Notes: generated by a model from the sequence alone, not told the origin. Counted from the first letter of the stretch, positions 3,416 to 42,300 are shown. The stretch: 57,377 bases of DNA from Macrostomum lignano (GCA_002269645.1 NIVC01004160.1:1-57377); one strand, 5' to 3'. Numbers and translations are program-made.

Positions 3416-5475
3416 TTACCGGCACATTCTCATGGTCATGTCCTTCTGCAATTAAGACCGCATATGTTTGTTTCGTTCAATTTACTGGATAGCAGGATAA
3501 GTGCAGATAGCTCCGCCTGTCAGTCAAACATGAGGACTCACCAACGGCTCCAGTTCCTTCTTGTCCACCAGAGCGAACTCGTTCACAAAGTAGAAAAAGT
3601 GCTTGTAGCAGGTATTCACGTGAGCTTCCTGAAATATAATTATTGTTGAAAGTTCAATAAAGTACTTTTTAAACGATGTCAAACGTGAGCACGGTGGTTT
3701 GTACGCAAGCACGCATCCACACGGAGTGTTCAACGGCCTTGACTTTCACACAGGCGGAAATCACACGACAAACCCCCAGGCCAATTGATGCGCACGAGGC
3801 CCAAATTAATGTGGCTGAGCTTTTAGGTAAAAGTGTCAACAGTTAACACAGTTAGTGAGGGAACGAACTGCCTTGGGTAGGGTTTGGGGAGCCACTCCCT
3901 AGTGTCAAGCAGCTTGGGATGGCCGGCACAACTTATGTCAATGAAGGCAACGCTTGATACCAGATGTCCGAAATTGAACGCCCGAGTACTCACGGCGCCA
4001 ACAGACACCAGGTGCTCAAAGTGGTGAATATAGACGTGAACAAAGACTCGAAATAAGCGAGTGAAAATCTTCTTAACGCTGGCCAAGTAGGTCTTGGGAA
4101 ACGGCCGGCTGGAGTCGGTGGGGAAAAGTTCCTCGTCGCTGATCTGCGTCTCAACCCAGTCCATGAGCAGGTGGATGTACTCCCTGGCAGGCAGGGAGGT
4201 CGGCTTCTTGTACTGGCCCTTGTCAGCCCACTGGTACTCGTACTTGGAGCCGCCGCTCATCTTGGGGCAGCTGACCTCCGTGCACTCCTCCGCCACTGTG
4301 CCGTAGATCAGATTCACCCGGTTGTAGAAGTCCACAGCGTGCACTGCAAGCCAATCGTTGAGATCCTCGCCCTGCGGCAGCTGCACCGCAGTTTTCAGAT
4401 CGATGCCGGCGCTGAGAGACGCCATAGCGTTCTTGTGCAGCTGGTGGCGAAGTGTGCCCTCCTTGTACTTCTTCTGGGGCTTGAAGGTCTGTTGGTTTTA
4501 TTTGGAATTGTTGCAGCTGTATTTGGTTTTGCATGCTGATGAGAGATAGACATGAACAGAAGTATCAAATTAGAACTTAAACAATAAAAATAATTTATTA
4601 TCCTCATGCTATCTATATAAACCATAGATAGAAGATCTAATGTAGATGTTAATATTATTAATTAGAATGAAGTAATTTGAACTTTTTAAAAATAAGTGTA
4701 CAAATTTCTACATTTAAATTGAAGCTTCTAATATAGTCTTTTGAAGTTTTAGAAAATAGGTTTTATAAACATGCTATATTGGAACCAATTTATACACATG
4801 CATGTTATTCAAAATTTACAAAAATCAATGACAAAATATAAGTAGCTTAACAAATCTAAAATAATAGTAATACTGATGACAATATTGCACTTTATATAGA
4901 TATAGTTATAGTATTGATTGGTTATAGTGCTACTTTACTTAGTTTTATATCACTATACTATATCAATAATATATCAATACGTTATTAAGCTCAGTCTACT
5001 TCTGCAAAAATCTTGTTTCTAAAGTTAAAAATTTTAATAAAAATCTAGATCAATAAAGCTAAGCTAAGCAAGTTTATATCTACAAATCTTACACAGTTAA
5101 CCAGTTAAAGGCTGCATAAAGGTAAAAAGCATATCAGTATCAATGCATTGTCTAAAAACTCAGACTTGGTAAAAAGTCTATTTGAGGTAATTTAAATATA
5201 AAATAGCATGGCCATGCTTAAGACAAATTTTTCAGCCTACATGTACTTTTGTTAAAAGATACTTGACACAAATAGTTGAAATTTATAAATGAAGCTGATC
5301 ATGCCAATTCGTTAAGATCAAGCAAATTAAATAAAATTAATTGCACACTGCATCTGACTGAAAGATGGTATAAATATAATTAATTTAAAAAATTCAAGAA
5401 AGCCATGAGCAAAACAGCATTCAATTTTCATACCTTTTCTCGATTAAAGAACTCTTTAAATCCTCCAAATGACAT
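3416..5475 (-). CDS. MOB3: MOB kinase activator 3 (MOB3-like), 4 coding exons, 217 aa
   Basis: Exons 5475-5434 ([14 protein letters not shown]), 4488-3994 (TFKPQKK...[29 protein letters not shown]...[12 protein letters not shown]...GA), 3628-3542 ([18 protein letters not shown]...ELEPL) and 3445-3416 (KDMTMRMCR*). All introns are GT-AG, phase 0. Motifs WLAVH.VDF.NR.NLIYGT and MSGG.KYEY.W are typical of the MOB3 subgroup. Confidence 0.93.
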
Positions 5476-6717: not shown

Positions 6718-9700
6718 ATGCCATCCAGCAGAGGTGGCGGCATCAGCCTGCTGGGCCTGCCGCTTCTGCTGCTGCTCGCTGCGGCAGCTGTGAAGCCGGC
6801 AGAGTCCGTGTTCTCCTTCAAGGAGGGCAAGCAGTACGTGTACGATGTGGAGACGCACACGAAAACCAAGGACATCGGTGACCTGTTCGTCACAGGCCAG
6901 GTAGAAACAATTGTACAATCGCTTAGTGACGTGTATGCACCTGTAGGAATTTTAAAAATCAACCTAACTGCTTTTATTACCGTTAATATTTACCTAGACA
7001 GGTAATAATGCATGTAGCTTAATTTTTATCACCCATTGACTATATTGATTTAAATTTATTAAGATTAAAGAGAAAGTTAAGAAATTTTGATCAATTGCAG
7101 TTAAAAAATTTTTAATATCTTAAGGTTGGTTTGTGGCCGAGTCTCGGGTTTGGTTCATGGCCGAAGCTCGGGTTTGGTTTATCGCCGAGTCTCGGGGTTG
7201 GTTTATGGCCGAAGCTCGGGGTTGGTTTTGGACCGAATCTCGGGGTTGGTTTATGACCGAGTCTCGGGCTTGGTTTATGGCCGAGTCTCGGGTTTGGTTT
7301 ATGGCCGAGTCTCGGGTTTGGTTTATGGCCGAGTCTCGGGTTTGGTTTATGGCCGAGTCTTGGGCTTGGTTTATGGCCGAAGCTCGGGTTTGGTTTATGG
7401 CCGAGTCTCGGGTTTGGTTTATGGCCGAGTCTTGGGCTTGGTTCATGGCCGAAGCTCGGGTTTGGTTTATCGCCGAGTCTCGGGGTTGGTTTATGGCCGA
7501 GTCTTGGGCTTGGTTTATGGCCAAAGCTCGGGGTTGGTTTATGCCCGAAGCTCGGGGTTGGGCTCGGGGTTGGTTTATGGCCAAAGCTAGGAGTTGGTTT
7601 ATGGCCAAATCTCGGGGTTGGTTTATGGCCGAAGCTCGGGGTTGGTTTATGGCCGAAGCTCGGGGTTGGTTTATGGCCAAAGCTCGGGGTTGGTTTATGC
7701 CCGAAGCTCGGGGTTGGGCTCGGGGTTGGTTTATGGCCAAAGCTAGGAGTTGGTTTATGGCCAAATCTCGGGGTTGGTTTATGGCCGAAGCTCGGGTTGG
7801 TTTATGGCCGAAGCTCGGGGTTGGTTTATGGCCAAAGCTCGGGGTTGGTTTATGCCGAAGCTCGGGGTTGGTTTATGGCCAAATCTCGGGGTTGGTTTAT
7901 GGCCGAAGCTCGGGGTTGGTTTATGGCCAAAGCTCGGGGTTGGTTTATGCCCGAAGCTCGGGGTTGGTTTATGGCCAAATCTCGGGGTTGGTTTATGGCC
8001 GAGTCTTGGGGTTGGTTTATGGCCGAGTCTTGGGGTTGGTTGATGGCCGAGTCTTGAGGTTGATTGATGGCCGAGTTTCGGGGTTGGTTGATGGCCGAGT
8101 CATGGGGTTGGTTGATGGCCGAGTCTTTGCTCCGATCAGAAATGTTCCAGCATCGATATGGCTGAATCAATGAACTCGCAACTTCGCTGCTTTTATCTCA
8201 TTTTCTTGAATGTCATTGCGTCAGCTGTTTCAACCCTAACATCGATCCCCGGTTTTCAGTTTTCCATCCAGCTGCAAGGCAAGGAGCCGGATGGATCTCA
8301 GCACCTGGCCCTGACGCTGACAAAGCTGCACGCCAGGAACGGCCGAGGCCAGACTGCGGGTCAGGGCAGCGACGTCAAGCTGGATGGCTGGTTCAGCTTC
8401 CACCTGGACCCAGCCGGCCGGGTCAGCCATGTCCGGTATCCGCATGACGAGACTGCGTTCTTGGCCACTGTGAAGAAGGCCATGGTCACAGCGCTTCTTG
8501 GACACGATGACGTAAGCCCGAAAATTTCAGTTTCCATGCATATATTTCCTCTCACCGCCAAAATTTCATTGAATGACTTTTCAAAGCTGCTTTATGTAAA
8601 CCCAATTCAGGAGTACAAGTTCCACAACACTCACGAGTGGAGCACCAAGAATCGCACCATCGGTCGGTATCACACCGAGATTTCAAAGACCAGGCGCGGA
8701 GTTCATGGGAACAACGTGCACAGAAATGTCACCCATGTAAGCTTTCACACTTTTATGACAATTCTTTGCAGCACAGGCGTGCACACGATTTGCACTGGAG
8801 GAGAAGGCGAAACTCTTGGGGTGTCTTGAGCGGCACCCCTGTCTCTTGATTGGAGCAACTGTCTTTTGGTGGGCGACCCTGTCTCTTAGGTGGGTGCCCT
8901 GTTTCTTGGTGGCTGACACTGTCTCTTAGGTGGGTGCTACTGTCTCTTGGTGGCTGACACTGTCTCTTGGTGGCTGAATTTGTCTCTTAGGTGGGTGCTA
9001 CTGTCTCTTGGTGGCTGACACTGTCTCTTAGGTGGGTGCTACTGTCTCTTGGTGGCTGACACTGTCTCTTAGGTGGGTGCTACTGTCTCTTGGTGGCTGA
9101 CACTGTCTCTTGGTGGCTGACACTGTCTCTTGGTGGCTGACACTGTCTCTTGGTGGCTGACACTGTCTCTTGGTGGCTGACACTGTCTCTTGGTGGCTGA
9201 CACTGTCTCTTGGTGGCTGAATTTGTCTCTTAGATGGGTGCTACTGTCTCTTGGTGGCTGACACTGTCTCTTGGTGGCTGAATTTGTCTCTTAGGTGGGT
9301 GCTACTGTCTCTTGGTGGCTGAATTTGTCTCTTAGGTGGGTGCTACTGTCTCTTGGTGGCTGAATTTGTCTCTTAGGTGGGTGCTACTGTCTCTTGGTGG
9401 CTGAATTTGTCTCTTAGGTGGGTGCTACTGTCTCTTGGTGGCTGACACTGTCTCTTGGTGGCTGACAATGTCTCTTGGTGGCTGACACTGTCTCTTAGGT
9501 GGGTGCTACTGTCTCTTGGTGGCTGACACTGTCTCTTGGTGGCTGACACTGTCTCTTGGTGGCTGACACTGTCTCTTGGTGGCTGAATTTGTCTCTTAGA
9601 TGGGTGCTACTGTCTCTTGGTGGCTGACACTGTCTCTTGGTGGCTGAATTTGTCTCTTAGGTGGGTGCTACTGTCTCTTGGTGGCTGAATTTGTCTCTTA

Positions 9701-12350
9701 GGTGGGTGCTACTGTCTCTTGGTGGCTGAATTTGTCTCTTAGGTGGGTGCTACTGTCTCTTGGTGGCTGAATTTGTCTCTTAGGTGGGTGCTACTGTCTC
9801 TTGGTGGCTGAATTTGTCTCTTAGGTGGGTGCTACTGTCTCTTGGTGGCTGACACTGTCTCTTGGGTGGGTGCTCCTGTCTCTTGGTGGGCGCCCCTGTC
9901 TTTTAAGTCGACCCTGCCTCTTGATTTCCCTGTCTCTTGTAGCTACCCCCGTCTCTTGGTACCCTATGGCTTGGAAGGTATGCATATGCCTGTAAAAGAT
10001 GCGGCTAGAATGGAGCTTCTTTCCATCATCAAGATTGGAAATGCGCTTTTGCATTTTGGAGAAGCGTATTGCAGTTGGGAGCCATTTTTGGCGTGCGACT
10101 GGAGGCTGGACGATCTTCCAGTCGGCCCGAATGCCCTCCTGCTATAAAGGCTACTGTCATTCTCTAATTATTCCAGACCATGCACTACAATCACGTCACA
10201 CGTCTGCCTGAGAGAACTTTCATACACGATGAGATCCACTTCTTTAATGATCAACCTGAAGGGTGAGTCAGCGAAGCGTCTATCTGCCGCATGAGCATCC
10301 TCATACATGTAAACAGGTACTCTAAAATAAGGAACGTTTCTCTAATCGCAATATTTCAGCTTCGATTCGGGCGTCAAGGTCAGGAAGGGCCCACGGGTGG
10401 TGATGGACAGGGAGCACGAAGATCCGACAAGTGTGTCCAGGGTGACCACCACGGCAAAATCGGAGTTCACGCTATCTGAAGTTCGAGACGCTTCACCGAT
10501 CAAACAGAGACCAGCAAAGCTGGCGTCTGAGAATATTAACCAGACCAGGGTGAGCTCATGGAGTTGCCAGTTAGCGTTTTGAGCATCGCAGTACATGCCA
10601 ACTCACTATCCGTGTTTCAGCTGCATGAGGTGTTCCAGTCCGACTACGATTTACGAGACGTTCGGCGCGGCATCGACTCCAACCTCACCTGTATAGCCAC
10701 CGACACTGCGGAATGTGAGTTTGCTTAGCTAAATTATTTGTCAAGTTGAAAAGCTTTTGCTTGACTTTATTTTTGTCTTACGCCACTAAATTTTAGCCAA
10801 ATCCGACGCTATCGACTGCTACCACAACTTGGTTCAAATATTGCAAGGACTGTCTCAGCGAGAGCTGAATGAAATTGCTTCCATGTACTTGGACCGGCCG
10901 TATGGCAATATGTAAGCTCGCGCTTTTATTGGGATACCTGCTGTTGCTTTTGAGATCAACCGCAGCGAGCACACATGTAACTTGCTGCTTGATCTACCTA
11001 CATTTCAGCACAAAGGATCTGGAGAAGAAGAGGTTCCTGGCCATGCTGGATGCAGTCTGCAGTGTTGGCTCCGTTGCATCTGACTTGATCATCAATAAAC
11101 TGGTTCTCAAGTCCAGGAGCAGACATCCGGAGCTCGTCCAGAGGGTGCTCGTGTTTCTGGCTACAAGAAAGAACGCCCCAGCAAACGTGAGCTGAAGAAT
11201 TTGGAATGCCGTATCGAAATCGTAGAATACGGTAGTCCGCTTAAGTAGGGCTTTGAACTCGTGACTCGTGTTGCAAAATGCGTTATCAAAAAGCAAAATT
11301 TTCAATTTTAGCATTAAACTTCGCAATATTTCTCCTTCTGGATTTTCGAATTGCACATGAGCCAAGTATTGTTCGTAGGAAAAAATTGGAAGAGCATAAT
11401 ATTGCAGAGTGCAGAGTTCACAATTACATTTGTTTTTTAGTTTCGTGTTGTGATTTATTATTACCAGATATTGTTATTACCTTCTACTTAAGTCGTTCAT
11501 GACTCAAAGAGTACCAACATCCGGGTGCCATGATAAAAATGATGCTGTTTAAAAATGGTTTTAGGCCCTGGTGAATACTCTGGTCACGTTTGTGTTCAAT
11601 CCCGAGGGTCAGCCCGATATCAATGACCCGGACACTTACCACCGCTGCGTGCTTGCCCTCGGCACCGTCTGTCGCCTGATGCAAAGCTACGGCAACCAGC
11701 AGCAGAAGGCCATGGCTCAGAGCATAGTTAGCCAGCTGGAAAAATTGACCGAAGTCTTCGGTGAGTAAAAATATCAGAAATTGCTTTCATAAAGAGCTTC
11801 AAAATTGACAATTTAAAAGCCTCGCTTTCAGATCCGTACCATCACCGGTCAAAGAGGGACGTCATGGACGATGCAACATTCGAAAGGTTCATATTCTTGA
11901 AGTCTTCGCTGATTGACAGTTTAGGAAATGCCGCTTTTGAGAGTTCATTTGAGGTCATCCAGTCCTACTCTAACGAGTCGTCGGCACCCACTCTGTGGAA
12001 GCGTTCTGGGCTGCATTCTATGCGCAAATTCGAGACTATTGAGGTTTGTCTTTGTAGTAAACAGTCTGATTGCTCTCCTCAAGCGGGACTTTTATTTTTG
12101 TTTTTTGCATCCTGTTTTCAGGCAGCGTCAACAATCCTCACTGCCGCACTAACTGACTCTGACGAGCACGTTCGATACGAGGCCAGCCTGATGTACGAGG
12201 CTCATCCGTCAAAAACTAAGGATATTGCCACCATGCATCGCGAATTTGTTGAAGGGTGCGTTCAAAACGAGTTCTTTAACCCTATATGTAATTTGTTTAA
12301 ATCAATAATTATTTATTTTGCTATATATTTGCGCTCCGTGTTGTAGAATT
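6718..12350 (+). CDS. N-terminal large lipid transfer protein (vitellogenin-N/MTP-like) domain exons
   Basis: FSFKEGKQYVYDVET after the signal peptide matches the LLTP beta-barrel start. Helical-domain motifs CVLALGTVCRL, LIDSLGNAAF and KRSGLHSMRKF match the LLTP alpha-helical region (LKSLGN.G ... R..A..ALR). Confidence 0.7.
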
Positions 12351-18300: not shown

Positions 18301-21300
18301 TTTTTCAGCTACTCCGTGGATCGAGTTGGCAAGGACTACGTGAAGCTAGATTTCGACCTGTCCGTGTGCTTCGCTGAAGGAGATTGCGACTTCACAGTCA
18401 AGCTGCTGAAGGACACGGTGGTACCGCAGCCATTCTGCCATCGGAACTTCACCGGCGCTCTGCCAGGCGGCTCGCTTGGCGACTTCGCCAAACTGCTCGG
18501 CAACGAGGCCTCGGAGGCGGCGCTGCAGACAGCCTTTGAGGCGGTGGTGCGAAGGTTCGGCCTGCAGAAGGCCTTCTTTAATCCTCCAGAGTGCGCATTG
18601 CCGTCAAACACATTCAATAATGGCTGGGACAGTCGTGAGTCTTCGCTGTGAACTGACATTTACCTCATGACATAGTAAATCATTAAGCTTCTTTAATCAT
18701 GATTAATTACGCCTGCCCCAATGGGCAGATGTACAACTGACAGCTCAGTCGCAGTCATTGCGCGGCACATCTGAAGGCTGTGCACGGCTGTTCAGTCCAA
18801 TGACTGGGGGGTCACACACTCTTAATTACCCCAGCTAATGCTGGCACCCATTTTACAGCTGAGTGAACTGAAGCAATGCATAGTTAAGTGTCTTGCTCAA
18901 GGACACAGATTGTTCCAGTGGGATCGGAAATCGAACCCCCGAGTCGTGAGTCCGACACATTAACCACTATTACCAACAACGCATTATTCCACTGCTAACT
19001 TACACAGTAAGAAGTTAATTTACTTTTAGAAGTCACTACGCTCGTACAAGAGTCAGATGTCTATTGATGCTAAATTCTGTTCAGAATAAATTGAATGTCA
19101 TTTCCAGCTATGGAAAGTTCACTAGAAGCAGTTTATCCTCAAACTCGATTCCACAGGTTGCCCCAGGGTGTTCCACCTGCCACGCCTGCCCAGCCAGGTC
19201 CGCTGCCACCTGAACGAGTTCTGCATGGGCGTCACCTGCTGCGCCGAGCTGGACTTTAAAGTGTTTAAACCGACAGCGCTGATGTGGCTGATTCTGGATC
19301 CGTGCGAGTACCGGTTCTCCATTGGTTTCAATAACCTGCACTACAACCAGACTCTGTTCTATTATGAGTGGGGCCAAGTGGAGACTTTCAATATTGGCTC
19401 GCCTCTGCAGATTATGTAAGCTGTTGTATTTGAAAAGATAGTGCATGCAAGCTCCACAATCGGGTGACAAACGTTGACGCCTTTGGTGCTGCGATTTTGG
19501 TGCTGGCGCCTTTGGTGCTGGCGCCTTTGGTGCTGGCGCCTTTGGTGCTGGCGCCTTTGGTGCTGGCGCCTTTGGTGCTGGCGCCTTTGGTGCTGGCGCC
19601 TTTGGTGCTGGCGCCTTTGGTGCTGCGCCTTTGGTGCTGGCGCCTTTGGTGCTGGCGCCTTTGGTGCTGGCGCCTTTGGTGCTGGCGCCTTTGGTGCTGG
19701 CGCCTTTGGTGCTGGCGCCTTTGGTGCTGGCGCCTTTGGTGCTGGCGCCTTTGGTGCTGGCGCCTTTGGTGCTGGCGCCTTTGGTGCTGGCGCCTTTGGT
19801 GCTGGCGCCTTTGGTGCTGGCGCCTTTGGTGCTGGCGCCTTTGGTGCTGGCGCCTTTGGTGCTGGCGCCTTTGGTGCTGGCGCCTTTGGTGCTGGCGCCT
19901 TTGGTGCTGGCGCCTTTGGTGCTGGCGCCTTTGGTGCTGGCGCCTTTGGTGCTGGCGCCTTTGGTGCTGGCGCCTTTGGTGCTGGCGCCTTTGGTGCTGG
20001 CGCCTTTGGTGCTGGCGCCTTTGGTGCTGGCGCCTTTGGTGCTGGCGCCTTTGGTGCTGGCGCCTTTGGTGCTGGCGCCTTTGGTGCTGGCGCCTTTGGT
20101 GCTGGCGCCTTTGGTGCTGGCGCCTTTGGTGCTGGCGCCTTTGGTGCTGGCGCCTTTGGTGCTGGCGCCCCAAACTAAAAGCGCTAGCTAAGACCCTGAA
20201 AATCAGATGCTGTCTGAAGTGGATATCTGTGTTGCTATGCTATTCCAACCAAATCTGAAATCAAAGCTACTGAGATTATTAGATAATTAACGGAAATCGC
20301 GTCACGAATTTAAATAAGCTATTTCCTTCAGAAGTAAGTAACCCGGCCCATTAACCTTCAATTGCAGCTACTCAATTCGCAAGGACAGTGATCGGCGCTT
20401 GTTCCTCGTGGACCTGAAGCTCAGCCTCACCATCGACTCATTCCGCACCGACTTTGTGCTGCTTGAGAACTCCATGGTGCCGCAAGTGGGCTGCAACATG
20501 AACGCTTCTATCAGCTTGCCAGGAGGCGGCCAGGTGAAGGATTTTATCAGGCACCTAGCGGAGACAGGTGTGCAGAAGATCACGGACGAAGCCGTGCAGG
20601 CTGTGCTCAGACACCTGGGGATTGGAGACCTCATTGACTTTGAGTCGAAATGCGAGAATAGAACTGGATTTTTCAACCGTGAGAACATCACTACGAGCGT
20701 ACTGATTTTTTATACATGAACTCAATAAATTCATGTCAGTATAAAACCAAAATTCCAGACTGCCCGCTGTTCAAGACGTCGGCAAACGCGCCATCCAGAT
20801 TTGTCCCGGGCACTTACTGCGACCTCTCATCCGACTGCCGCATGCTGAGCTGCTGCGCGGAGCTCAACCTGCTCATCGCTCGGAAGGCCTTCGCCCTGGC
20901 CGTTTCTGTTGACCCGTGTGACTACAAGCTGCTGGTTCGCTTTGAGAAGATGACGCTGAGCAAGTCTTTGTTCCGATACGACTGGGGCCGTAGAGAGTCC
21001 TTCGACCTCGGCAAAGTCATTTTCGTCAGGTTGGATTTTTTCTTTGTCTCTTCAGAAGCACATTCGGAGCTGACATAAAAACTGATGTGTCTCTCTGCCC
21101 CGCAGTTTCAAGATCGATAGGGATCCGGTCAAGAAACTCTACTTCGTGGACCTTGAGCTGCAGGTTAAAATCGAGGGTGACACTTCGACACCCGTGGCCT
21201 TCCTCAACAACTTCGCCATCCCGATTCCGATCTGCAATCCCAATGCATCCATCAGCCTGCCAGGCGGCTCCATCGGAGACTTCGTCAAGGAGTTGGGCGG

Positions 21301-24300
21301 AAGCATCACGGAGAGCGCGATCGGAGCTGTGCTGCGGCACCTCCGGCTTGAAGGCATCATCGCCACGCATTCCAACTGCTCGCCGGAGAGCCCAAAGGGT
21401 ATTAGACTTTTTCAAATACTTTATTTTGCAGAACCACATGCTTAGACTGAAGTCTAGTTAGTGTAGATTTGTTTTAGGGTAAGAAAAGGCTTGGCCACTG
21501 CGCGGCCTTGAGCGCCAATATATATATTTAGAAATCGATATTTGCGTGGGGTGGAGTTGCGCCTGATAAAAAGGAAGCGTGCAAGCTAATTGGCTGCAGA
21601 GCGACCGGGGCAGGCATTGTACACTTGAGGGTCAGAGAGTTGGACGGGTGCACGGCCAACATCCTTCCCCAAGCGGATAAAAGTTAGGAGATAAGAGCAA
21701 ATGGGAAGCTAAGTAATATTTCGAAGTGGGAATCAGAGGGGAATGGATGTGAGTGAATAGTATGAAAATATACGGATTTGAGAACGAATATTCATTAGGG
21801 CATAAACACAAATATGAGCATGGATAAGAGTTTAGGCATTAGTTTCGATCAAATGAGCATTACCTTTGAAAATAGACACGAGCATTAGTTTCGAATATAA
21901 ATACGACATTAGTTTCGAATATAAATACGAGCATTGGTTTCGAATATAAATACGACATTAGTTTCGAATATAAATACGAGCATTGGTTTCGAATATAAAT
22001 ACGACATTCGTTTCGAATATAAATACGACATTCGTTTCGAATATAAATACGACATTCGTTTCGAATATAAATACGACATTAGTTTCGAATATAAATACGA
22101 GCATTAGTTTCGAATATTTGGCCTTTGAAGCAAAAGCTAAAAGCTATGTATGCTGCTGAAGATTAAAAAATAAAACGAGACCGGCAGGGACACCCCAGTC
22201 AGAGAGTTGGACGGGTGCACGGCCAACAGTTAGGTAATTTTAACTCTCAGAGTAAGCCAACTTGAAATAAGAAAAGATTAACTTTTACGATCGTACAGCA
22301 CCGCATAGGAACCTACCCCCCCCCCCCTACATATCAGATATTATCAATGCAAGTGTCGAATAGTTCATAAAAAACTGGCAGGGTGATAGCAAGCTCTTTG
22401 AATTACGTTCTCTACATTTTAATTCCACTGCCGTGCAAAAATTTCAGTTTGTCCCGGCCTTACGCTGCCCGACTTCATTCCGGACCCGCTGAAGTGCTAC
22501 CTCAACGAGCACTGCATGGGCATCGAGTGCTGCATGAGTTTGGATTTCAAAATCAAGCAGATCTCCGTCAAAGCCTGGGCCTATGTTGATCCATGCGACT
22601 ACAAATTCTCAATCGGTCTGGAAAACTGGAAGTTCGAGAGGGCGCTGTTCTCATTCGACTGGGGAGAGTGGAAAACTGAACGTCTGGGCAACCCGCTGGT
22701 GCTGCGGTAAGTCAGCAGCCGCCATCTGCTGGCGTGGGGGAATTTTTTAGCTAAATATGTTGTTAATTTCAGATACCGGATCGCAAAGGACAGCTCTAGG
22801 CGCGTGTTCACCTTTGACCTAACAATATCGCTGAAGGTGGAGGACATCAACCAAGAGTCCGTTGTGCTGCACGGCTACGAAATTCCGCAGCTGGTTTGCA
22901 ACAGGGAGGCTTCAATTGGCATTGCAGGTCCGAGCTTGCACTTATTCAACATTTATTCAAGTTATACTGTTCAATAGTGCCTGTCTATCAAATTGAAAAG
23001 CTTAGACTGCATAAGAAACCTTTATATAATTGCTATACATATTCACCCGATGAAAGGCATTTTGCTAACTGTGAAACACTCCTCCCTCCCGCCTTATTCT
23101 GCAAGGCATTGTGCTTCTGCCATAACCTTAACGCTATACTGATTTAAAGAACCATGCAATGAGAATAGGTGTATCAAAATGTAAGTGAAATATTTGCAGA
23201 CCTAATCAACCTGGGAAGCAGCATTGGCGGGAACATCAAGGACACAGCCATGGGCATCACTCTGCAGCGCATCGGGCTGGACAAGAAGTTCTTCCGGATG
23301 CAAAACTGCTCAGTCGAAGGCTCCGAGTGGCAGAGCTCTTCTCGGCAGCAATCAAGTGGGTAGCCATTTGTATGTTTTGTCCATTTAATGCTGCAATCAG
23401 TCAGATTTTAACGCTAATATTTTATGCATTCTCAGACTGTCCGCTGTTCAAACTATCGGACCATCTGAACGGCGATAAGAACTTGAAGTGCCGCATCAAA
23501 GACAACTGCCTGGAGGTTGAGTGCTGCCTCAGCCTGCAGCTGGGCAACTTCCGCTACAGCTACAACGCCTGGGCAAAGTTCGACCCCTGCCAGCTGTCTG
23601 TAGCGGTTGGAATTGAAAATTGGAACTGGACCCGGTCACTGTTCGACAAGTGGGGCCTCATGCACACGGAGACCATTGGCAAGGCCATCGATTTGAGGTG
23701 AGGCGAATAATCCCTCCCGCAAAATTTAGTTCGGAGAGGAAATCAACAGACTTTTTACACTATTTTACAGCTTCAAATTCGACCGCACGAATCGGAACGA
23801 GCTCGTCGTGAGCTTCGGGGTCGGCACCCAGCTGGACGGCCTATCGTTGTTGCCAACTGCGTGGCTGATTGAGTCCGCTCCGCTGCCCATTCCCTACTGC
23901 CGCTCCGATAACACGCTGTCTTGGCCAAAATGTGAGAGAATCAGATAATCTTCTTCAGTATCTTAAAGTGGGAAAAAACTACTAATCCCAGTTTGCTCTT
24001 TCTGTCCCACAGTCGATCCGCAAGACATGGCCAAGTCGATTTTCGATGCGGGCACTAAGATCATCCTGAACAGAGTGGGCATCACCGCCAACATCCTTCG
24101 CGGCACAGCGTGCTCCCCAGTCGATATGAACATCTGGCCTCCGAAGAGTGGTAAGGTTCCATTGCGGTTTGGTGCTTTTGTACCTGTGGTCAGCACTGAG
24201 CCTAAGACTTGGATCCCCAGGGGCTCACATCTCGTGCGCTTTACAAGTGGCAGACATAAATAAAGAACCTACTCACTTGCCCGACGCAACAGAACAGCTA

Positions 24301-30300: not shown

Positions 30301-33300
30301 TGCCTTGACGATGCAGGACAGCCCTGCACAGTGGTTGGCCTACTTGACAATCAGCGGTTGCAGGTGCCTCTGTGTCACACCAACGGAACGATTGACTGTA
30401 AGTAATGGTACTTCAAGGTGATGTGTTCCTTATTACCCGACTTTCGATAATCAAGGAACAATCACTTCTAGCTCAACAGCTAGGCAACCCAGTAAGTCAA
30501 ACGAAGGTATTCAATTACCTTTAATCCGGATTTGAATTTCTTGAGTAGTTCTCGCTAGATTGTCAGTAGATCTCGTAGTCACTTGATTTTCGTTGTCTGG
30601 TCCGATTCTTCTTTCTTCTAAGTTCCGGCCGGATTCTTCGCTCAGGACCAATGAGCTCGTAGCAACAATGGGTCCCTGCGCCAAACTGCGGTCTAAATTA
30701 AGCCTCCTTCTTCTAGCAGTGCCTCTATGCACTCTAGGTATAGCTCCGGAAACCACTGATAGTCCTCTAAGATCTATCAGGGGCAGTCCTTCTGTAGACT
30801 GCAACCAATGGAGTCTAAACAGACTCAAGAGTCTCAACAGACTCAAATAGACTCAAGTCTCAATAGACTTGAGCGAGACGTCTCTAACACAACGGCGCAA
30901 ATAAGGAAGGCTTACCGCAACAACTCGACCGAGTCTCGATTGACTTGGTATATCAGGAAGTCCTCCTAAGGCTTCCTCTTCGGAGCGCTCCTCTTCCGTG
31001 GGGAGAATGGCTCCGGTACCGCTTCAGATCGCTTGTATTTATAGACAAGTTTTTGATCCAAAATAGTATCATGACAATTCACGTGTTGCGCTAAAAGGGG
31101 AAAATGGCTCATGGCGTATTATTCTGGTAACATCTTTTTCTGGTAGCGTGATTCATTCAAAGCTTAGGCGCACATGCGTGTACTTACTTACTTATAGTAG
31201 TATTATACGATTATCTTCTTTTTTCCTTTTTTAACGGGAGGTAGAACACTCTACAAAATCTCCCTTTTTTACGAAAAAACTCGTCCCGAGTTTTAACAAT
31301 AAAATTCTGTGGTGATCAGTTAATATAGGAAATAAACAATTGATTTTGTGCGCGTCTAGTGAAGCGAGGGTTTGGTCAAAACTCTAAAAACTTTTCAGTA
31401 CATATTGCGGTCAAAACTCGAATATCGCGTAGACATCAAGTGGCATCAGGTTTGATCCGACACCACTTTCGAAACGTGCAGTCTCGCGGCATACTATTAC
31501 ATAAGGGGCATCCTATAACGCCCCTACTAGCGGTTTGCTTCAAACAGTGCATGCAAATAAAATGTTGGTGGTTACAATATTGAAACGTGCGCCAAGAATA
31601 ACAATAGGCACATTGTCGCAAACTATCTCTACAGAGGGGACAATTCTGCCATGGCTGAATATAATGTGAATCGCTTAAACATTGTCCGCAAACTTTATGT
31701 TCGTTGATGCAAATAGTCGGTGGCTTGACAGCCAAGTCATCAGTTAAACATATCGGGCAGTCATATAGCTGCTGAGGCTGGGGCGCCTGTTTTGACAGTG
31801 CGTTGCCCATAATTGTCGTCAATTTGTCGCTGTCTTTGTGTCGCTCGGATTAGTCGCCTTTTACGACAAGCTTGCGAAGCTGTAGTGCTATTCTTTATCC
31901 CGGTCACTACACGGGGTTGTTCTCTAAACTCTAGCGTGGTCGTAGGTTGTAGCCATGTGGCTGGCTCACATCTGTCGTTTGAGTCTCCTCGTGCTTCGTC
32001 GCGATGTGGCGGTTCGTTGAACGCGTGCGATCAGCGTTGTCTAATGTCGGTAGAAACGTCGCGGTGTCAGTGTTGATCTTCTTTAGTCGATGAATGTGCA
32101 CGTAGAATTGATGCTGATGTGGATCTTGCACATTAGCCAGGCGTGCCGTTGTTGGTGACGTTAGTTGGACCACTCGATAGGGTCCTTTATACTTCTGTGC
32201 ATGTTTATGCGTCTGCTGCGGCGGGTAGTGTAGGTAAACGATGTCGCCGGCCGTCAGGGTTGTCGATCTCGCGTCGTTGCCGGTGGTCAGAGCCACCTGG
32301 TTGTCAATGTTGTGCTTGGCGATCTTCCATGCGAGGTGTAGTTGCGTGACGAATTTCTGAATGGAAGTCGGTACTTCCACGTACTGCGATGGTAGCAATT
32401 GCTGTGCGAGCAGATTCGGCGGTTGGAAGTCTCGTCCAAACATTAGGAAGAATGGCGTATTGTCCGTTGATCGATGAATAGCGCTGTTGTAGGCCATTGT
32501 TACAGATTGCAGGTAGATGATCCAGTCTTCCGGCTGTTGGTGCGCGAAATGTGTAATCATCTCGTGCAGGTTGCGGTGAAACCGTTCAACCATGTTTGCC
32601 TTCGGATTGTAGGTCGATGTGTAGATCTGCGTAATGTTGAGAATCCTTACGACTTGCTGAAACAGTTGCGATGTAAACTGCGATCCGTTGTCCGATGTGA
32701 GGTTCTTCGGCGTGCCGTACTTGCAAATGATTTCGTTGAAGAAACTCATTGCCACTGTCTGAGCTGTGATGTCCGGTATCGGTATGGCGATAGCAAACTT
32801 CGAGAAGATATCCAAGGCGGTTAGAATGTAGGTGTAGGCGATGCCCTGGAGACAGCTCGGTGGCAGTGGTCCGGTGATGTCGATGCTTAGACAGTCCATT
32901 GTAGTCGACTTCGGAATGGACTGTAGCTGCGGTTTCTGTCGTCGTCCTGTCTTTGATGCAGCACATGAATGGCAGTTGTTGCAATACTGCTTGATGTCGC
33001 CGTACATAGTTGGCCAAAAGTAGTATTGTTCCACTCTCGCGATGGTCTTTGCGGCCGACAGGTGTCCAGCGAGTGGGTTGTCGTGCAGCTCGTTGAGAAT
33101 TGCTTGCCGAAACGAATATGGTACGTAGATCTTGGGTTTATTGTCGCTCATCCAGTAGAGCCGTGACTTATTGATTGTTAGGTGTTGTCGTTGCTTGCGT
33201 AGGAACTTTCGTTCCATGGGGCTAAGTTTGATGTTCTTGTCGTCGTCTTTAACCGCTTGGTAGAAGTTGTCGCGCTCGGTTTCATCCACCAACTCCTTGA

Positions 33301-36300
33301 TGTTAGGGATTGGATGAATGGCGTTGACTTCATAGGCTCTTGACAGGGCGTCCGCGGCTTTGTTGGTAATTCCTGGTTTGTAGACGAGTTTGTAGTTGTA
33401 ATCCTGGATCTTGAGTGTCATCCTGATGAGTCGGTTGTTGGTCTGTCCTTTTGTAGTTACGACGTAGGTCAATGGTGCATGATCCGTGCGTACTATCGTC
33501 TGTATTGGAGAACCATAGATGTAGTAATGAAACTGTCGCAGGGCGAACAAGACTCCTAGTAGCTCTCGTTCCGTAGCTGACCACTTTGTCTCATTTGGTT
33601 TGAGTGCTCGACTGACGTAAGCAATAGGTCGTTCCTTCTTGTCCTCGGTTTCCTGTAGTAGGACTGCTCCGAGTCCCGTTCCTGAGGCGTCTGTCTCGAT
33701 GATGAAGAGCTTGTCGAAGTCCGGATGCTGTAGCAGTGCGTCTGATGTCAGCTGTCGTTTGATTTCGTCGAAACTTTCCTGTTGTCTCTGTGTCCAGTTG
33801 TCTTGCTTCCATTTGTCGAACTTGAGCAGGTCGTACAGTGGCTTTGCTGTCTTTGCGAAGTTAGGTAAGAACTTCCTGAAGTATTGCGCAAGTCCAAGGA
33901 ATGATTGGACCTTCGTTATACTGGTTGGCGTAGGAAACTTCTTCACCTTTTCCACGTTGTCTGGGTCCGGTGAGATTCCTTTGGCTGTCACCTGATGTCC
34001 CAGGTAACGCACGTTGTCTCGGAAGAATTTGCATTTAGTTGGTTGTAGCTTCAGACCTTGACGTTGTATAAGCGCGAGGGCCTTCTCCGTCGCTTCATAG
34101 AGTCGTTCGAAGTCTTCTCCGTGGGCCAAGATGTCGTCAACATAGTGCAACAGGTTCGTGCATCCTGCAGCATGTATGCTGTTAGTCGGCTCATCGTTGC
34201 TGGGCTGTTGCTGAGTCCCATCGGCGATCGATTGTACTCGTATACTTGTCCATTGTAGGTTTTGAAAGCCGTGTACTGTCGTGACTCTTTCTCGATTTCA
34301 ATTTGCCAAAATCCATGACGTAGGTCGAACACCGTGAACAATTTTGCCGTGTTGAGCTTTGCTAGTAGTTCGGAGATCTTCGGTAGGCTTTGCTGATCCG
34401 TCGGTATGTACTTGTTCAACAGTCTGAAGTCGCATACGAGTCGTCTTTCGTTTGTCTCCTTCTTCTGTACCAGTAGGCACGGTGAGGAGTAAGCCGAAAT
34501 AGCTTTGCTGATGATGCCGTGCTTTAGCATTTTATCGATGATTTCGTCAAAGTGTTGTTGCAGATGCTTGGCGATCGGGTACGGCTTGCACTGAATTGGT
34601 TCCGTGTGCGGCAGAAGTTTGATTTCCTGTTTGATGTCCTTGGCTCGTCCGATGTCGTAATTATGATGGCAGAAGGCTTCGTTGTACTTCCACAACAGCT
34701 GTCGAACTTTCCTCTTTTGCTGTTCCGTAATCGGGCTGTCATCCAAATTGATCTTCTTTTGAAATTCTTCCTCTGTTAGTCGTGGAGTCGCTTGTTCAAT
34801 CAGCATAACCGATGCTTGGGTGTTGAGATGACCGATGCACATTCCTTGTCGTAGATGAACCGTTTCTGTGTTCGGGTTGCAGATTTGTACTGGCAGTTGC
34901 TTATCCTTTGCAACCAGCACTAGTGCCGTAGGCATCATGATTTGATGTTTTGCCGTGACTCTCCTGTGTGGATCAAATATCATTGCTTCATCTGCCGCGC
35001 TGGTCGTTTTCGCTCTGACCCAGCATGCGCTTTCAGGCTGGATAATGACATCTTGCTGCAGAGTTACTTTCGGTAGTACTCGAATCTGGTTGATCAGCGG
35101 TTGCTCCACCGTGTCGATCCTAAACGTTTGCTTGTTGAAGTCGAAGGTCAATGGTAGTTGAAGCTGCTTGAACGTGTCGATTCCAACGATGACGTCTTGG
35201 TTTGGTAGTCTGTCGATGATGTACGTCGGGACCGTCAGCTGTTTATTAGCAATTTTCAAGTCGATATCTGCTTTTCCTAGGATGTTGAGTGAATGTCCTC
35301 CTGCTCCTGCAACTGCGATTGCTGCTGGTCGTACCGCGAGTCGTAGCTTGTTGCATAATTGTTGCGAGATGACTGTGATCGAGCTGCCTGAATCCAGTAG
35401 TGCTCGACATGGCAAGTTGTTGACAATGACCTGAGCCATTGCTTTGCCAATCTCGGCGTGTAGCGTACAGACGTAGTTTTCCGGCCATTTTGGCTCGTGC
35501 TGTTCTGCTTGATAGTTGGGTGGTTGTATCCTTGGTGCCGTTGGTGTTGTCGGAATCGATGGATATAGCCGCGTTGCTAGTGTCGGTTGCCCTTGAACCT
35601 CACAATGTGCAGTTTCTGTTAGTTCTAAACTGTTGTCGCTTCCCGTTGTCGTTCTTTGCATTATGGCATTCACTGTCTTCTTAGCTCTTGGACAAGTTTG
35701 ACTGAAGCACCGTACGATCGATGAAATGATGAAGATTGCCGTGACAATCCACACAATGCAAGCACCGTAGAAGATGAATCCTTGATAGAGACTGCCTCTT
35801 CCATTGAGCAGCTCCCAGAAGCTATTTGTCCAAAATGATTTGATGGCGCTGTCCATTGAAACAAGGACGGGAAATCTTCCTGTCCCGGTTCCTTTGTCCT
35901 TTCTTGTGAACAGCTGGTGAATCATCTTGCGTTGGGTGATGAACGCTTGCAAGAAGTCGTTGATCGTCCATCCTGGTGTTATCTCGTCAAGTTGGATATC
36001 GGCGAATGGCGTATACTTCGTTCTGTTGAATCGGATTTTCAAATCCTCCATGTCGTAGTTTTCGTCGACGATTACTTCCGGTTCTGTGACGTTTGCTGTC
36101 GTTCCAGTTGTTTTGATGACGTGTAGTGCATTGTCCAGTTGATAGTAGTTTGCTGCCGTGGTGCAAGGTCTCGGTATTGCGGTGCCAACGATGATGTTGT
36201 GTACCGTGTCCAAGAATCCCTGAATTCGTTTTCCTTCGTAGAACGCTTCAATCCTTGGCTTGTCGTAGCAGGTTGTTGACGTGTTCGACGGCAAGATGTT

Positions 36301-39300
36301 AAAGTGCTGTATCGGCGTGCACTTGTATATTAACAGATGCTCGTATATTGGAACTGCCAAAACGTTCGTCATTCCGGTGATTTTACGAAAAGTCATCGTA
36401 GGGTTGACATAGTAGTTTTGTCTGGCATAATTTAAGTTGATTGCGTGCATTTTGCAAGTTAGCTGGACCAGTGTTCGATGCAAGTGGTTTAACTGGTTGT
36501 GTAGATTGTGATCCAAAGCCGTTATCTTTGCTGACAGTAGTCGGTTTGACACCAGTTTGGGACGTTCGATGTCACGTCGTCGTCTGTTCTGTTGTTCCTG
36601 CTGTTGATACGTTCCGTTGATGATCGCCAGAAAGGTTTGTTTGTCGTCATCTTTTACGTAGACTGGTATCTCTTGTTCCGAGATGAATAGTGTCTTGTCT
36701 GTATCCTTGCATTTCAGTTTTTGCTCGACTGGTTTCTTTTGAAACGTCAGTGCCAAGTCTCCTGACTTTGCCAAAAACGTATTTGACAGTAGTCCTCCTT
36801 CAACTGTGTGATACTTTTGAAGCTTGCAGTCAATTTCCGGCTCAACTTCCCACGCGAAGAAGTATTGTCGTGACTTAGATGGTTCTTCATATCGTGAGTC
36901 GCCTCTGCGTATAATTTGCCATCGATAGTCTTGATGATATGTTGGACTCAACGGTAAGCTGTATAGTTCCTCATTCCGCAGTATCGGCGTTGGACACCAT
37001 CCTTTGCTGTATCGGCAGTCGCTTAATTGCAGTTGTAGCGACTCCATTTTTTCAAAAGGATTGTGATAGAATGGAATATTCCTGATTAGGTAACTGTTTC
37101 GTGTCATGTAGTTAGTCCATGCTTCCGAAAAGTGTACATATCGTCCGTTTGCTGAGTTCTTCGTTCGGTAAAGTTGTGCCTCCCCACTTTCTCATCCGGT
37201 TCTAGCTGACCATCCTTTGAGAACAGTGTTTGGTTCCATTGTAGACATTCAGCGTGCGACACATGTAGTTCGTGTTGCCAAAATCGAATTCTGTTCCACT
37301 GTCCTCGCCAAACTTTTTCCACTAGGTGCTTGTCTCTAAAGCACACTATTCCGAGTTGTCGATGCTTCTTGATGTTAGCTTTGTAGAGATCAATTGTGAT
37401 CTTCTTTGGCTTCGTCTGGTTTGTCTTGAAGTAGCTGCATTTGATGTCGGTTGGTATCTTGTAGATCATTGGTTGGATATGCGCATCCGTTGGACATATC
37501 ATTGGTTTCTCCATTGCCGTTGCTTTGGCGACTACTGCTATCAGTAGTATCACGATGATCCAGAGCAGCCAGTTTTTCCACTTCTTGGACCTTGCCGTTG
37601 TCTTTGCTGGCATTGGCTGCGATTGCCATTCGTTATCCTCCATGTCCGCATCGTATTCTTTCGGTTGTTCCATTGGCTGATTCAGGCGGAAGGCTTCTGA
37701 TTTGCTTTGCTCTTTGGTTATTTCAGTATCTTCGTCTGTAGCTTCTTCCGATGTTTCCGTTGTTTCACTCCATTGCGTTTGGTATCTTTTCTCTGCCTTG
37801 TAGTCGACCGTTTGAATATAGGCTTCACCATTTCGTTTGTATCGGATCTCGTAGCATTCGTCGCTGTCGGAACTCGGCTTTTCTTTCATTTGTTCTTTTT
37901 CCATTTCTTCATCTTTCCATTGTATTTCGTAGCCTTGATCGCTGTCGGAACTTAGATTTTCCGCTCTCAGTTCTTCCTGCATTCCTTCTTCGGCTCGGTA
38001 TCCATTCGTATCATCATGCACTTCGCAGTCGTGATCGTTGCCGTAACTTATACATTCTTCTTCTTCCTTCATTTCTTTGTCTTTCGTGCTTGTTTTTTCG
38101 TCATCCACTGTTGTCGATTCATAGTTGTTTTCTCTGCCAGTCTTCATCTTTTCTTCGTTGCCGGTGTCGCTCTCCGTCTCCTCCCTTTTTTTGTGATTTA
38201 CTTTCTTCCTGTTTTCTCTGCTGTCTCCGGTGGTCTCTTTTAATTTGATCATTTCGGTTTCATTCGCCTCTTCTGTGTTGTCAGTGTTGTCCTCGTGCGT
38301 CGTCTTCTTTTCGATCAAGCTGATGTCAAGTTCCGGGACTGTGAAGTCCATTTCCAAGTCGTCAATTGTGAACACTTGCTGTTCCTGCTGCTCATTTTCC
38401 GGTGTGTACGTGATGGCATTCGCGTATCGTGGCATTGCTTGCGTTGGCTGTCTTTGTGCGTACCTGGCATTGCGTGGCCTGTAGCCATTATTTCTGAAGC
38501 GGCCTTCGTTTCCGAAGCGGCCATCATTTCCGGAGCGGTCATTATTTCCGAAGCGTCTATCATTTCCGACGCGTCTTATGCTTTGTTGTTGGCGATTTTG
38601 ATATTGCTGCCATGGTTTCTGCGGCTTCTGATTGTTGAATATCTGTCGCGGCTTGTCGTATCTTGTTGACCAATGAGGACAATTAATCTGATAATGTCCT
38701 TCTTGTCCGCAGTAGTAACATCTGGCTGAGGCTTGTTCATTTCGTCTTTTTTGTTCGGCGATAGCAGCTGTCTGGTGCTGCATTAACTTGTTTAGTTGCT
38801 GCGTCAGTTTCTGCACTTCATTGTTGCCTGTCGTCATTAATGGGGCACTGGCTTCCCACTGCATTCCGCACCGCAAAAGGTCTTCTTCGGTTTCGATATT
38901 TTCACGCAAAAGTCTATCCCGAAGTGACGGCTGTGCGTTGTTTATTACGTGCAGGATGAGGTTTTGTTCGCGATCCATCAATCGTTGTCTTTCTCTGGCG
39001 GCCAATTCTGCCGCTCCCAGTGGCGGTTGGTCCGCAGCTTGCAGCGGTGGCTGATGCAGTGCCTTAATTATCTGGCGGATATCGTCCACAAAGGCGAGGA
39101 AGGATTCTGTTGCTTGCATCCTTCTGTTATGCAACTTGTGCAGCAGCACTGATCTGTTTGTGCCGCAACGGTTGAAATGCGCGCGCAGTTGAATGATTAG
39201 TGCTGGATAATTTTGCTGTGTTGCTGCATCCAGCTTGCCGTAAATTTCTCGCGCAGTACCTTGGAGAAGAGGTGGCAGCAGCTGTGCCTTCTCTGGATTT

Positions 39301-42300
39301 TGTAGGTTGTATTCCCTACATACCAGGTCAAAGTGGTCGACAAATGTGTTAAAATCTTTCTCCATCGAGAAGGTACCGACCGTTTCTTTGATGTCTCTGT
39401 GTACCGTTGGATTGCGCCGCGCCATGTTGTTGATAGGATAGAACGGTAGTTCAAGATCTGGATCGATTTGTAACGGATCGTCCAGTGTGGTGTTTGCCTC
39501 GGAATAAACCTCGACTGTAACGAATTGTCTTGTGGTGTCGATTTGTTATTCGCTGGCCTCGGATGCGGTGTGGCTTGCTGCCACTGGTTGTCCTCAAATG
39601 AACTTGTTCTGTTCGCTTGCTGATTTCGCACTTATGCGGCGTCCCGCAAAGTGTATCTTCAAGTTGAAGTGGGCTTTGTCTTCTTGTTTTGCAAAGTCTT
39701 TTTCTCTTCTTTGACTCTCTCTCTTTTGTCAATTAACTCCGCTCTCCACGAAGTTTCAATTAATTTCGGTTTTGTTTTTGTGCCGGCAAAATGTTTCAGT
39801 TATTTTTTGTTTGTTTTGCGTCGACGATTCTTTTATTTTCGGTTTGTTTTCAGTGTACCGATGAATTTAATTTCGGTTTTATTTTAACTCACACTTGCTC
39901 GAGCTCGTTAAAACAAAATTTAACACGCGTGCTCAAACTGTACTCAAATTTGACAGGTGCTCAAACCTGTACACCAAAATTTACTCGAGTTTCAAAACGT
40001 AACGGACTTAAAAAGTGTTAACTCTAACACGTGCGCGCAAAATTAATGAAGTCGCTCTGTCGTCACTTTACAATAGCTTGATCAGGGCTATTGCTCAAAG
40101 TTTGAGTAGTGCCGAGAGGGCGAGATCACCAATTGATGTGTTCCTTATTACCCGACTTTCGATAATCAAGGAACAATCACTTCTAGCTCAGCAGCTAGGC
40201 AACCCAGTAAGTCAACAGAAGGTATTCAATTACCTTGAGTCCTTTGGAGATCTCTCGGAGTAGTTCTCGATTGTCTTCAGTTGCTCTCGTATAGTCACTT
40301 CTGACTTTCGTTTGTAGAGCGGGTCCGATTCTTCTTTCTTCTTCAAATAGTTCCGGCCGGATTCTGTCGCTCGGACCAATGGGAAGCTTCCGAATTAACA
40401 GTGGGATCCCTGCGCCAAACTGCGGTCTAAATTAAGCCTCCTTCTTCTAGCAGTGCCTCTATGCACTCTAGGTATAGCTCCGGAAACCACTGATAGTCCT
40501 CTAAGATCTATCAGGGGCAGTCCTTCTGTAGACTGCAACCAATGGAGTCTAAACAGACTCAAGAGTCTCAACAGACTCAAATAGACTCAAGTCTCAATAG
40601 ACTTGAGCGAGACGTCTCTAACACAACGGCGCAAATAAGGAAGGCTTACCGCAACAACTCGACCGAGTCTCGATTGACTTGGTATATCAGGAAGTCCTCC
40701 TAAGGCTTCCTCTTCGGAGCGCTCCTCTTCCGTGGGGAGAATGGCTCCGGTACCGCTTCAGATCGCTTGTATTTATAGACAAGTTTTTGATCCAAAATAG
40801 TATCATGACAATTCACGTGTTGCGCTAAAAGGGGAAAATGGCTCATGGCGTATTATTCTGGTAACATCTTTTTCTGGTAGCGTGATTCATTCAAAGCTTA
40901 GGCGCACATGCGTGTACTTACTTACTTATAGTAGTATTATACGATTATCTTCTTTTTTCCTTTTTTAACGGGAGGTAGAACACTCTACAAGGGGTAACAG
41001 AAGAAAATGGATTTACGAAAAAATTATTTTTACACTCTTAGGGGACTTTGATAAGGTCGACGGCAGCAAGATCTGGGACAATGCCGCTGAGATAGCGCTG
41101 AAGCGGTTGAACATCCCTCCAGGCGTGTTCAAACCTGAGAACTGCTCAATCGTCACTTCGGCCGCGGTGTCAAGAAAGAACTGTCCGCATTTCACTGTGC
41201 CTCCGCATCTTCCTGAGGGCGCCAAGTGCAGAATTAGCGACGACTGTCTGGAAATGGATTGCTGTGTCGACCTGCAGCTGCTATCGTTTAAAAAGCAATT
41301 CCACGTCTGGCTCGAGATCGACCCGTGCGGTCTGCGGTTCGAAACTGGCTTTGAAAACTGGAAGTTCAACATTAGTCTTCTTAATCATATCGGTGAGACT
41401 ATTCATATGACGATTTGCGACAGAACTGTGTGCTCAAAAAGGCTTAAACCAACTGTCTAAAAATTCATAGGTCGCAGCTACAAGGAGAAGATTGGCAACT
41501 CGCTGTCAGTCAATTTCGAATATGGCCGAGCATCCGACGGTCAGCTGTTGGCCACGCTGTCAGTAGAGTTTTGCTACGACTTCCAGTGTACATTCGACAT
41601 CAAGCTGCTTGATATGGCAGTGATACCCATTCCAGCCTGCGGAGCATCAGGACTCGTGTGGCCTGAATGTGAGCCGTATTGTAGTTCCTTTGTACTTTGA
41701 AGCTATTACTTATCAGGAATTTGATAATAACTGAATTTGTAATTTCAGTAAACGCGGCCGGTCATGCCAAATCTGTCGAAGAGGCCACAAGAGGTCTTAT
41801 CGCTAACCGGCTGAAGCTGTCCCCGAACTTCCTGGCGGATCGTCAATGCGTAGTGAACGAAATTTTGAGCAGAAATGTGACTTGCTCACACGCCAATGTG
41901 CCTGCCTTGCCAGAATTCACAACTTGTGGCCTGGCACCCGGCTGCCTAGGAGTTGAGTGCTGCCAGCTAGTGGACTACAAGCTGCTCAATAGGAGCTTCT
42001 CCACCTGGATTCAGTTCGATCCTTGTACCTACACGTATTCAGTTGGCTTTGAGCGCTGGTATCTGAATGGCACTCTCATGAATTTTACTGGATGGAATGA
42101 AGAGCAGCAGCAGAAGATCGGCGACCAGCTCACCCTGCGATTCAAGGTGGCAAAAGCGCAACAACTGCAAAGCTTCATAGTAGGCATGTCGCTTGAGTAC
42201 TGCGATGCCAACGATTGCAATCGAGTAGCGAATATTCTTCACGATCAGGAGTTCCCGGTTCCCGTCTGTTTGGACGGCTCCAGGCTTGAATGGTCGAATG

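Follow-up and report, generated by a model that had tools for sequence, protein, structure and literature searches.

A Ty3/Gypsy retrotransposon of Macrostomum lignano with a predicted class III, glycoprotein B-like envelope between gag and protease

The element and its carrier class

A stretch of 57,377 nucleotides from Macrostomum lignano (GCA_002269645.1, NIVC01004160.1:1-57377), referred to here as the window, contains a long terminal repeat (LTR) retrotransposon of 10,571 nt on the minus strand. The element carries an envelope gene (env) between gag and the protease, and its product (Env) is predicted to be a class III fusogen similar to herpesvirus glycoprotein B (gB) rather than to the baculovirus F-type. 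The order of the coding parts is gag, acidic linker, hydrophobic segment, env ectodomain, transmembrane helix, protease, reverse transcriptase (RT), RNase H and integrase.

The 5' LTR (40134..40989, 856 nt, TG...CA) is followed 2 nt further in by the primer-binding site (40120..40131, 12 nt), for which one pattern search gave no matching primer tRNA gene. The gag part (38673..39425) reaches from the first ATG to a lone CCHC zinc knuckle (38673-38720; Pfam zf-CCHC, E 3.6e-4); its capsid region is assigned by position, with no Pfam match there. Just past the knuckle, an 18-nt repeat occurs five times (38484-38573) and encodes a hexapeptide repeat rich in G, R, N and D. Between gag and env lies a linker of acidic, low-complexity sequence (37587..38400), less conserved across copies than any other part. 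It leads into a predicted internal signal or signal-anchor (37515..37586) with a basic n-region, a hydrophobic core and an A-x-A end; signal cleavage would fall after A-x-A, directly before the start of mature Env. The ectodomain (35782..37514), assigned by profile and structure searches, is followed by a C-terminal transmembrane helix (35713..35781), which may act as a stop-transfer segment. Judged by hydropathy only, these hydrophobic segments, one on either side of the ectodomain, are the only ones in the three window open reading frames (ORFs). In frame with env lies the aspartic protease (35149..35439; Pfam Asp_protease_2, E 6e-10; RVP, E 7e-7), followed by the RT core (33989..34467, with YVDD at 34133-34144), RNase H (33398..33796; Pfam RT_RNaseH_2, E 2e-36) and the integrase (31931..33124), which shows an H2C2 zinc finger, an rve core and a GPY motif and ends at a stop codon. 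The polypurine tract (31256..31270) precedes the 3' LTR (30419..31255, 837 nt).

The window copy is interrupted by two frame breaks, one in env within 37104-37191 and a second in RT within 34051-34297, leaving the ORFs 37104-39545, which ends in the env N-terminus, 34051-37191 with the remaining env, the protease and half of RT, and 31931-34297 with the rest of RT, RNase H and the integrase. Its two LTRs are identical over ∼590 nt and strongly diverged in the 250 nt on the U5 side (30419-30670 compared with 40134-40400). A perfect 4-bp target-site duplication is found at all eight other distinct sites with both flanks visible, while 3 of the 4 bases agree at the window. Divergence and mismatch together suggest gene conversion, recombination or chimeric assembly. 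The LTRs contain no heat-shock element.

According to Pfam, the Pol domains follow the Ty3-like order protease-RT-RNase H-integrase, and the nearest solved Pol is the Gag-Pol of Ty3-G (E 1e-95, in a PDB search for which the query was a public protein from the same 90% cluster). TG...CA ends, a primer-binding site, a polypurine tract and a short target-site duplication are all present. BEL/Pao elements are defined by specific protease and gag domains and by three tandem knuckles; no BEL/Pao-specific Pfam family occurs among the listed matches, and the element has one CCHC only. A BEL/Pao assignment is disfavored mainly because of the positive Ty3 match. By these domains the carrier is a Ty3/Gypsy LTR retrotransposon, in agreement with an earlier note made on this DNA.

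Class of the envelope protein

The same note had proposed a class III, gB-like Env instead of the baculovirus-F type, on the grounds of a motif series. All of the named motifs are located on the minus strand within 35712-37514: MEKPMICP (37491-37514), VSHAECLQW (37236-37262), the RRRR furin site (36574-36585), the long helix (36481-36540), QLTC (36454-36465), NPTMTFRKITG (36373-36405), LLIYKC (36319-36336), CYDKPRI (36250-36270), GFLDTVHNII (36190-36219) and PRPC (36163-36174). The first two fall in ORF 37104-39545 and the others in ORF 34051-37191. A profile of this Env and 29 relatives matches gB of Epstein-Barr virus (EBV) with an E value of 2.4e-11, the aligned blocks comprising the furin site, the helix and the NPT, C, C-Y and G-L-C blocks, so that the proposed equivalence to the gB motif series holds from the furin site through the G-L-C block. 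A profile lacking the query and its closest relative finds the window ORF at E 5.5e-77 and no reversed sequences, a control that is not independent of the query, as the relatives were chosen by their likeness to it. A motif-shuffle test (0 of 20,000) carries no weight here, since the query itself served to build it.

The ectodomain contains 12 cysteines, 6 N-glycan sequons, a predicted central helix of 46 residues and a predicted beta crown. Ten of the cysteines are conserved in all covering rows among the 29 relatives and the other two in 23 of 24; four align with cysteines of EBV gB, and disulfides are predicted. The furin site and the cysteine pattern are retained in distant relatives. Of the two hydrophobic fusion loops expected at the tip of domain I, a candidate for one is the hairpin E51-70/E73-83, whose turn has W69 on one side and W73 on the other and where relatives mostly have F at 69-70; the second fusion loop has no firm assignment.

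The structure model, which represents the Env monomer, suggests that a PH-like domain carries the fusion domain as an insertion and that a crown rich in beta structure comes after the long central helix. In a search of predicted structures, the glycoproteins of Beihai rhabdo-like virus 3 (E 1e-25) and Nyavirus midwayense (E 1e-24) rank first, slightly ahead of herpes gB, and a separate structure search finds the single-protein class III fusogens rhabdovirus G and thogotovirus Gp. The best matches of the model are class III viral glycoproteins, the outcome on which the earlier note had made its proposal depend. A single-sequence PDB search with the unbroken 474-aa piece of the window gave no match at E up to 10. 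The Pfam family Monjiviricetes_fusion (PF24664) reaches 22.7 bits, below its cut-off of 27 bits. In two Atlas searches, class III clusters scored 0.87-0.88; as these values miss the 0.9 threshold, the clusters serve as leads only. The profile search and three structure searches confirm the prediction of a class III Env that is gB-like rather than F-type. An F-type (class I) Env was rejected on the basis of the polar residues following RRRR, the gB-like predicted fold and the query, which shows no Baculo_F match at E up to 10.

The rank of the two RNA viruses in the structure search, together with PF24664 as the matching Pfam family, could mean that this lineage alone captured env, and did so recently, from an RNA virus of the nyami, chu or rhabdo kind, in place of having inherited an ancient errantivirus env. 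This origin is very unlikely, as these two viral matches share 13-15% identity compared to 22-29% with retroelement relatives of the same gag-env-protease layout, and a single-protein search, which detects close relatives only, found no relative in viral contigs. Across all viral structure matches the identity is 8-15%, and no donor is indicated.

Copies of the family and the native reading frame

The genome set G000 contains at least 40 env copies with 92-100% identity, a lower bound because scoring covered 40 of 93 candidates, and the family is young, multicopy and abundant in the flatworm genome. For comparison, 19 of the 39 other copies were picked nonrandomly across identity bands, giving 20 with the window copy. 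Four of these 20 carry the full gag-env-pol in a single frame of 2480-2538 codons with all landmarks. No junction is broken in most copies, that between gag and env being open in 13 and that between env and protease in 14 of the 20. The env break of the window is common to only one of the 19 other copies and the RT break to none. From the intact copies and the nearly private breaks it follows that the native form is one gag-env-pol ORF. The breaks either arose by mutation in this copy or are errors of the assembly. The env break was also considered as a site of programmed frameshifting, a reading that was rejected, since 18 of the 19 copies differ there and all 19 at the RT break.

Contigs of three RNA runs cross the env zone with one gap relative to the window. 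A public protein entitled "Macrostomum lignano retrovirus-related polyprotein" continues in frame from Env into Pol; its match to Env covers the C-terminal 38% at 98% identity. Word-indexed homologue searches returned only this polyprotein of the species itself and one relative at 59%. Among the 22 long relatives examined, 10 show the order CCHC-env-protease in one protein. In one env relative (P0019), a NADAR domain (E 8.5e-16) forms the N-terminal part of the env-bearing protein.

Two loci illustrate the states of insertion sites. At G000:C2447:186000-202549 (L034, L035), the upstream flank is the same as at the window insertion, and two tandem elements have their middle LTR in common. A solo LTR (L040) and a full element (L039/L043) with the same flanks represent two states of one site.

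The family very probably corresponds to the catalogued Platyhelminthes_Rhabditophora_Mlig_errantivirus_2, which is listed with ENV_HSV, 16 copies at >98%, LTRs of 863/864 and a total length of 10,591 (Chary and Hayashi, eLife 2026, PMC13524379, Supplementary file 1). Both agree in env type, LTR length (∼860 nt), total length (∼10.6 kb), multicopy state and host species, and the listed primer-binding site is the window 12-mer, two bases from the LTR, the only match for this 12-mer in the portion of the table available. No difference between the two has come to light, although the catalogued element could represent a subfamily that is sister to the copy in the window.

Selection and exchange of envelope segments

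Two tail-protease backbones, 11% apart, are present in 11 and 9 of the 20 copies, and the split recurs in gag (12-14% difference) and integrase (11%). The N-terminal half of env occurs in three types that are 9-15% apart, with type a on both backbones, whereas the C-terminal half is of one type with at most 1.1% divergence across the 20 copies. This distribution indicates recent transfer of env segments from one subfamily to another. The likely cause is template switching in copackaged RNA, and chimeric assembly of near-identical repeats may be an added source of the mosaic; the recurrence of the patterns in 4-7 copies argues for real lineages over assembly chimeras. A short RT stretch near 34000-34350 follows another pattern (copies L013-L032 of G000 compared with window positions 31900-39600).

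Pairwise comparison of one representative for each env type gives a dN/dS of 0.03-0.09 at dS 0.44-0.71, compared to 0.23 for the linker. The 28 and 32 amino acid differences between env types lie nearly all in residues 1-310 and not at all in residues 311-450, and all 12 cysteines are kept. The low dN/dS, the cysteines and the unchanged residues 311-450 argue that env is maintained as a protein, and by these measures it is under purifying selection.

These values largely refute the idea of a passenger Env, in which a viral gene, once captured, decays and is held open only by the downstream pol. As env is in frame with pol, stops and frameshifts would be selected against whatever its function, and env is broken in the window copy. 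Amino acid changes are purged as well, residues 311-450 do not differ across the three env types, and the break is common to only one of the 19 other copies, so that a passenger role is extremely improbable.

The host gene and neighboring features

The element lies antisense inside a plus-strand intron with GT..AG ends (30398..41041). This intron belongs to a large multiexon host gene on the plus strand (∼14000-55500) with repeated cysteine-rich units (families D8 and D9); eight ORF pieces of the gene have no Pfam match above the cut-off, and one piece has no PDB match. RNA evidence comes from the contigs of four runs, from which neither level nor strand is readable. The joint 30397>41042 is present in contigs of three of them (X1, X5 and X7) and absent from X17. 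One X1 contig joins both LTRs (31090 to 40234); this joint has GT..AG ends on the minus strand and a short side of 28 letters, and is either a splice excising the whole interior or an LTR-internal duplication. Not one of the 11 listed joints combines splice-like ends with a position of both ends inside the coding region, in contig data from which rare forms, such as a spliced env or gag RNA, may drop out.

Elsewhere in the window, a MOB1/phocein-family ORF (Pfam, E 1.6e-59) is located on the minus strand at 3826-4497. Minisatellite arrays occur at 2223-2859, 7124-8126, 8839-9889, 19478-20169 and 21836-22117 with periods of 35, 24, 20/41, 15 and 24 nt, respectively.

Proposed mechanism

The best joint explanation, held with good confidence, is a Ty3/Gypsy element with gag-env-pol in a single ORF and a class III Env, very probably Mlig_errantivirus_2, that would work through a polyprotein mechanism whose steps derive from general knowledge of membrane polyproteins. 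Gag would be made in the cytosol, and the internal hydrophobic segment would serve as a signal sending the ectodomain into the lumen of the endoplasmic reticulum. Signal peptidase would free the Env N-terminus, with glycans and six disulfides forming in the lumen, while the second helix would stop transfer and keep protease, RT, RNase H and integrase cytosolic on the Env tail. The element's protease would cut Pol free of this tail, and furin would cleave Env at RRRR, a cut also made in several gBs. Budding particles with Env trimers on their surface could then fuse with a neighboring cell without gH/gL partners, by which copies made in one cell type might reach stem or germ cells.

Several points weigh against this explanation. 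The whole-chain TM-scores are 0.37-0.43 with a root mean square deviation of 13-26, and the pTM of the model is 0.50, which leaves the domain arrangement uncertain. One of the 30 relatives shows a weak Baculo_F match (E 2.8e-4) at the C-terminal end of that profile. The identity with Mlig_errantivirus_2 rests on primer-binding site, lengths, env type and host; the supplements searched did not contain the protein sequence of that element. Finally, a 1:1:1 polyprotein would supply only little Gag for each Pol, and a regulatory step may therefore exist; none was found.

Env might also be required inside the cell or between touching cells, as a membrane anchor for Gag and Pol or for the fusion of adjacent cells, with no free infectious particle. 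With everything encoded in a single ORF, Gag and Pol are linked to membrane segments, purifying selection does not reveal which job is selected, and the element has no ORF for gD or gH/gL, which herpesvirus gB requires for entry (PMC13524379). Against such a role stand the furin site and cysteine pattern kept in distant relatives and the existence of single-protein class III fusogens, rhabdovirus G and thogotovirus Gp; the frequent exchange of segments fits copackaged RNAs, although free particles are not required for it. We regard an intracellular or contact-dependent role as the lesser possibility, yet one of some weight.

More speculatively, and in our view improbably, the family could be an actively spreading infectious retrovirus-like element in which a flavivirus-style topology coloads Gag, Env and Pol, Env is a helper-free fusogen, and three allelic N-terminal halves (fusion and PH domains) are swapped between backbones 11-14% apart while the C-terminal half has been swept. 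If true, this would imply an ongoing arms race over a receptor or restriction and a route by which the element passes from soma to neoblasts or germline, and both could be studied in an animal amenable to genetics.

Comparison with known systems

Elements with a gB-type env in GAG-ENV-POL order were reportedly first described in nematodes by Sacco et al. in 2022, who are also said to have described a continuous gag-env-pro-pol ORF. The element kind, and very probably this family, is already known, and the finding carries little weight as a discovery. The earlier note missed the prior publication of gB-type env in Ty3/Gypsy elements and the position of env between gag and protease in one polyprotein. 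As far as the available parts of PMC13524379 go, Ty3/Gypsy elements carry gB-type env as widely as they do the F-type, and GAG-ENV-POL order occurs in elements of Nematoda, Bryozoa and Platyhelminthes. These errantiviruses likewise combine a Ty3/Gypsy pol, env between gag and pol, and two flanking hydrophobic segments, and the window family belongs with them by its Ty3/Gypsy pol, predicted gB-type env and intact multicopy state. The ancient capture suggested by the earlier note agrees with the view of Chary and Hayashi (PMC13524379). In the available text of that study, 'polyprotein', 'single ORF' and 'in-frame' do not occur in the main text, and the accessible part of Supplementary file 4, which names the Envs that were modelled or assigned to a cysteine class, does not include Mlig_errantivirus_2; a literature search for continuous-ORF wording gave nothing beyond this study. 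In the portions available of a paper on M. lignano LTRs and heat, 'envelope' and 'glycoprotein' are absent from the main text and the LTR motifs from the supplements. A Macpiwi1 paper was also considered, and no connection with this element emerged.

With gB of EBV, Kaposi's sarcoma-associated herpesvirus, herpes simplex virus 1, human cytomegalovirus and pseudorabies virus, the flatworm Env has in common the predicted domain order, the furin site before the central helix, and the NP and cysteine positions in domains III-IV. In contrast to these proteins, it is only 10-14% identical and shorter (∼575-residue ectodomain) with 12 ectodomain cysteines, and it is part of a retroelement polyprotein with no gH/gL encoded. 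The nyami-, chu- and rhabdo-like glycoproteins of PF24664 show the same predicted class III fold family, with Foldseek E values down to 1e-25, whereas the flatworm Env stays below the cut-off of that family.

Two parallels drawn in the earlier note are borne out by the available text of the respective papers: the mosquito element 'Anakin' with a chuvirus-like G is a BEL/Pao element (Dezordi et al., PMC7642597), and the Env of nematode Tas, which stands in the belpaovirus RT tree, is stated to be weakly similar to gB (PMC9094657). Both carriers differ from that of the flatworm Env, a Ty3/Gypsy element.

The entry mechanism of gB-bearing errantiviruses is stated to be unknown (PMC13524379). A young, abundant and selected family in a laboratory flatworm is a good place to study a stand-alone gB-like fusogen. 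The remaining value of the family lies in this tractable example and in the env mosaic. With three N-terminal halves, one C-terminal half and two backbones, the mosaic is what this analysis adds to published work: it shows that closely related subfamilies have exchanged env within a short time, whereas Chary and Hayashi stress infrequent recombination over deep time (PMC13524379).

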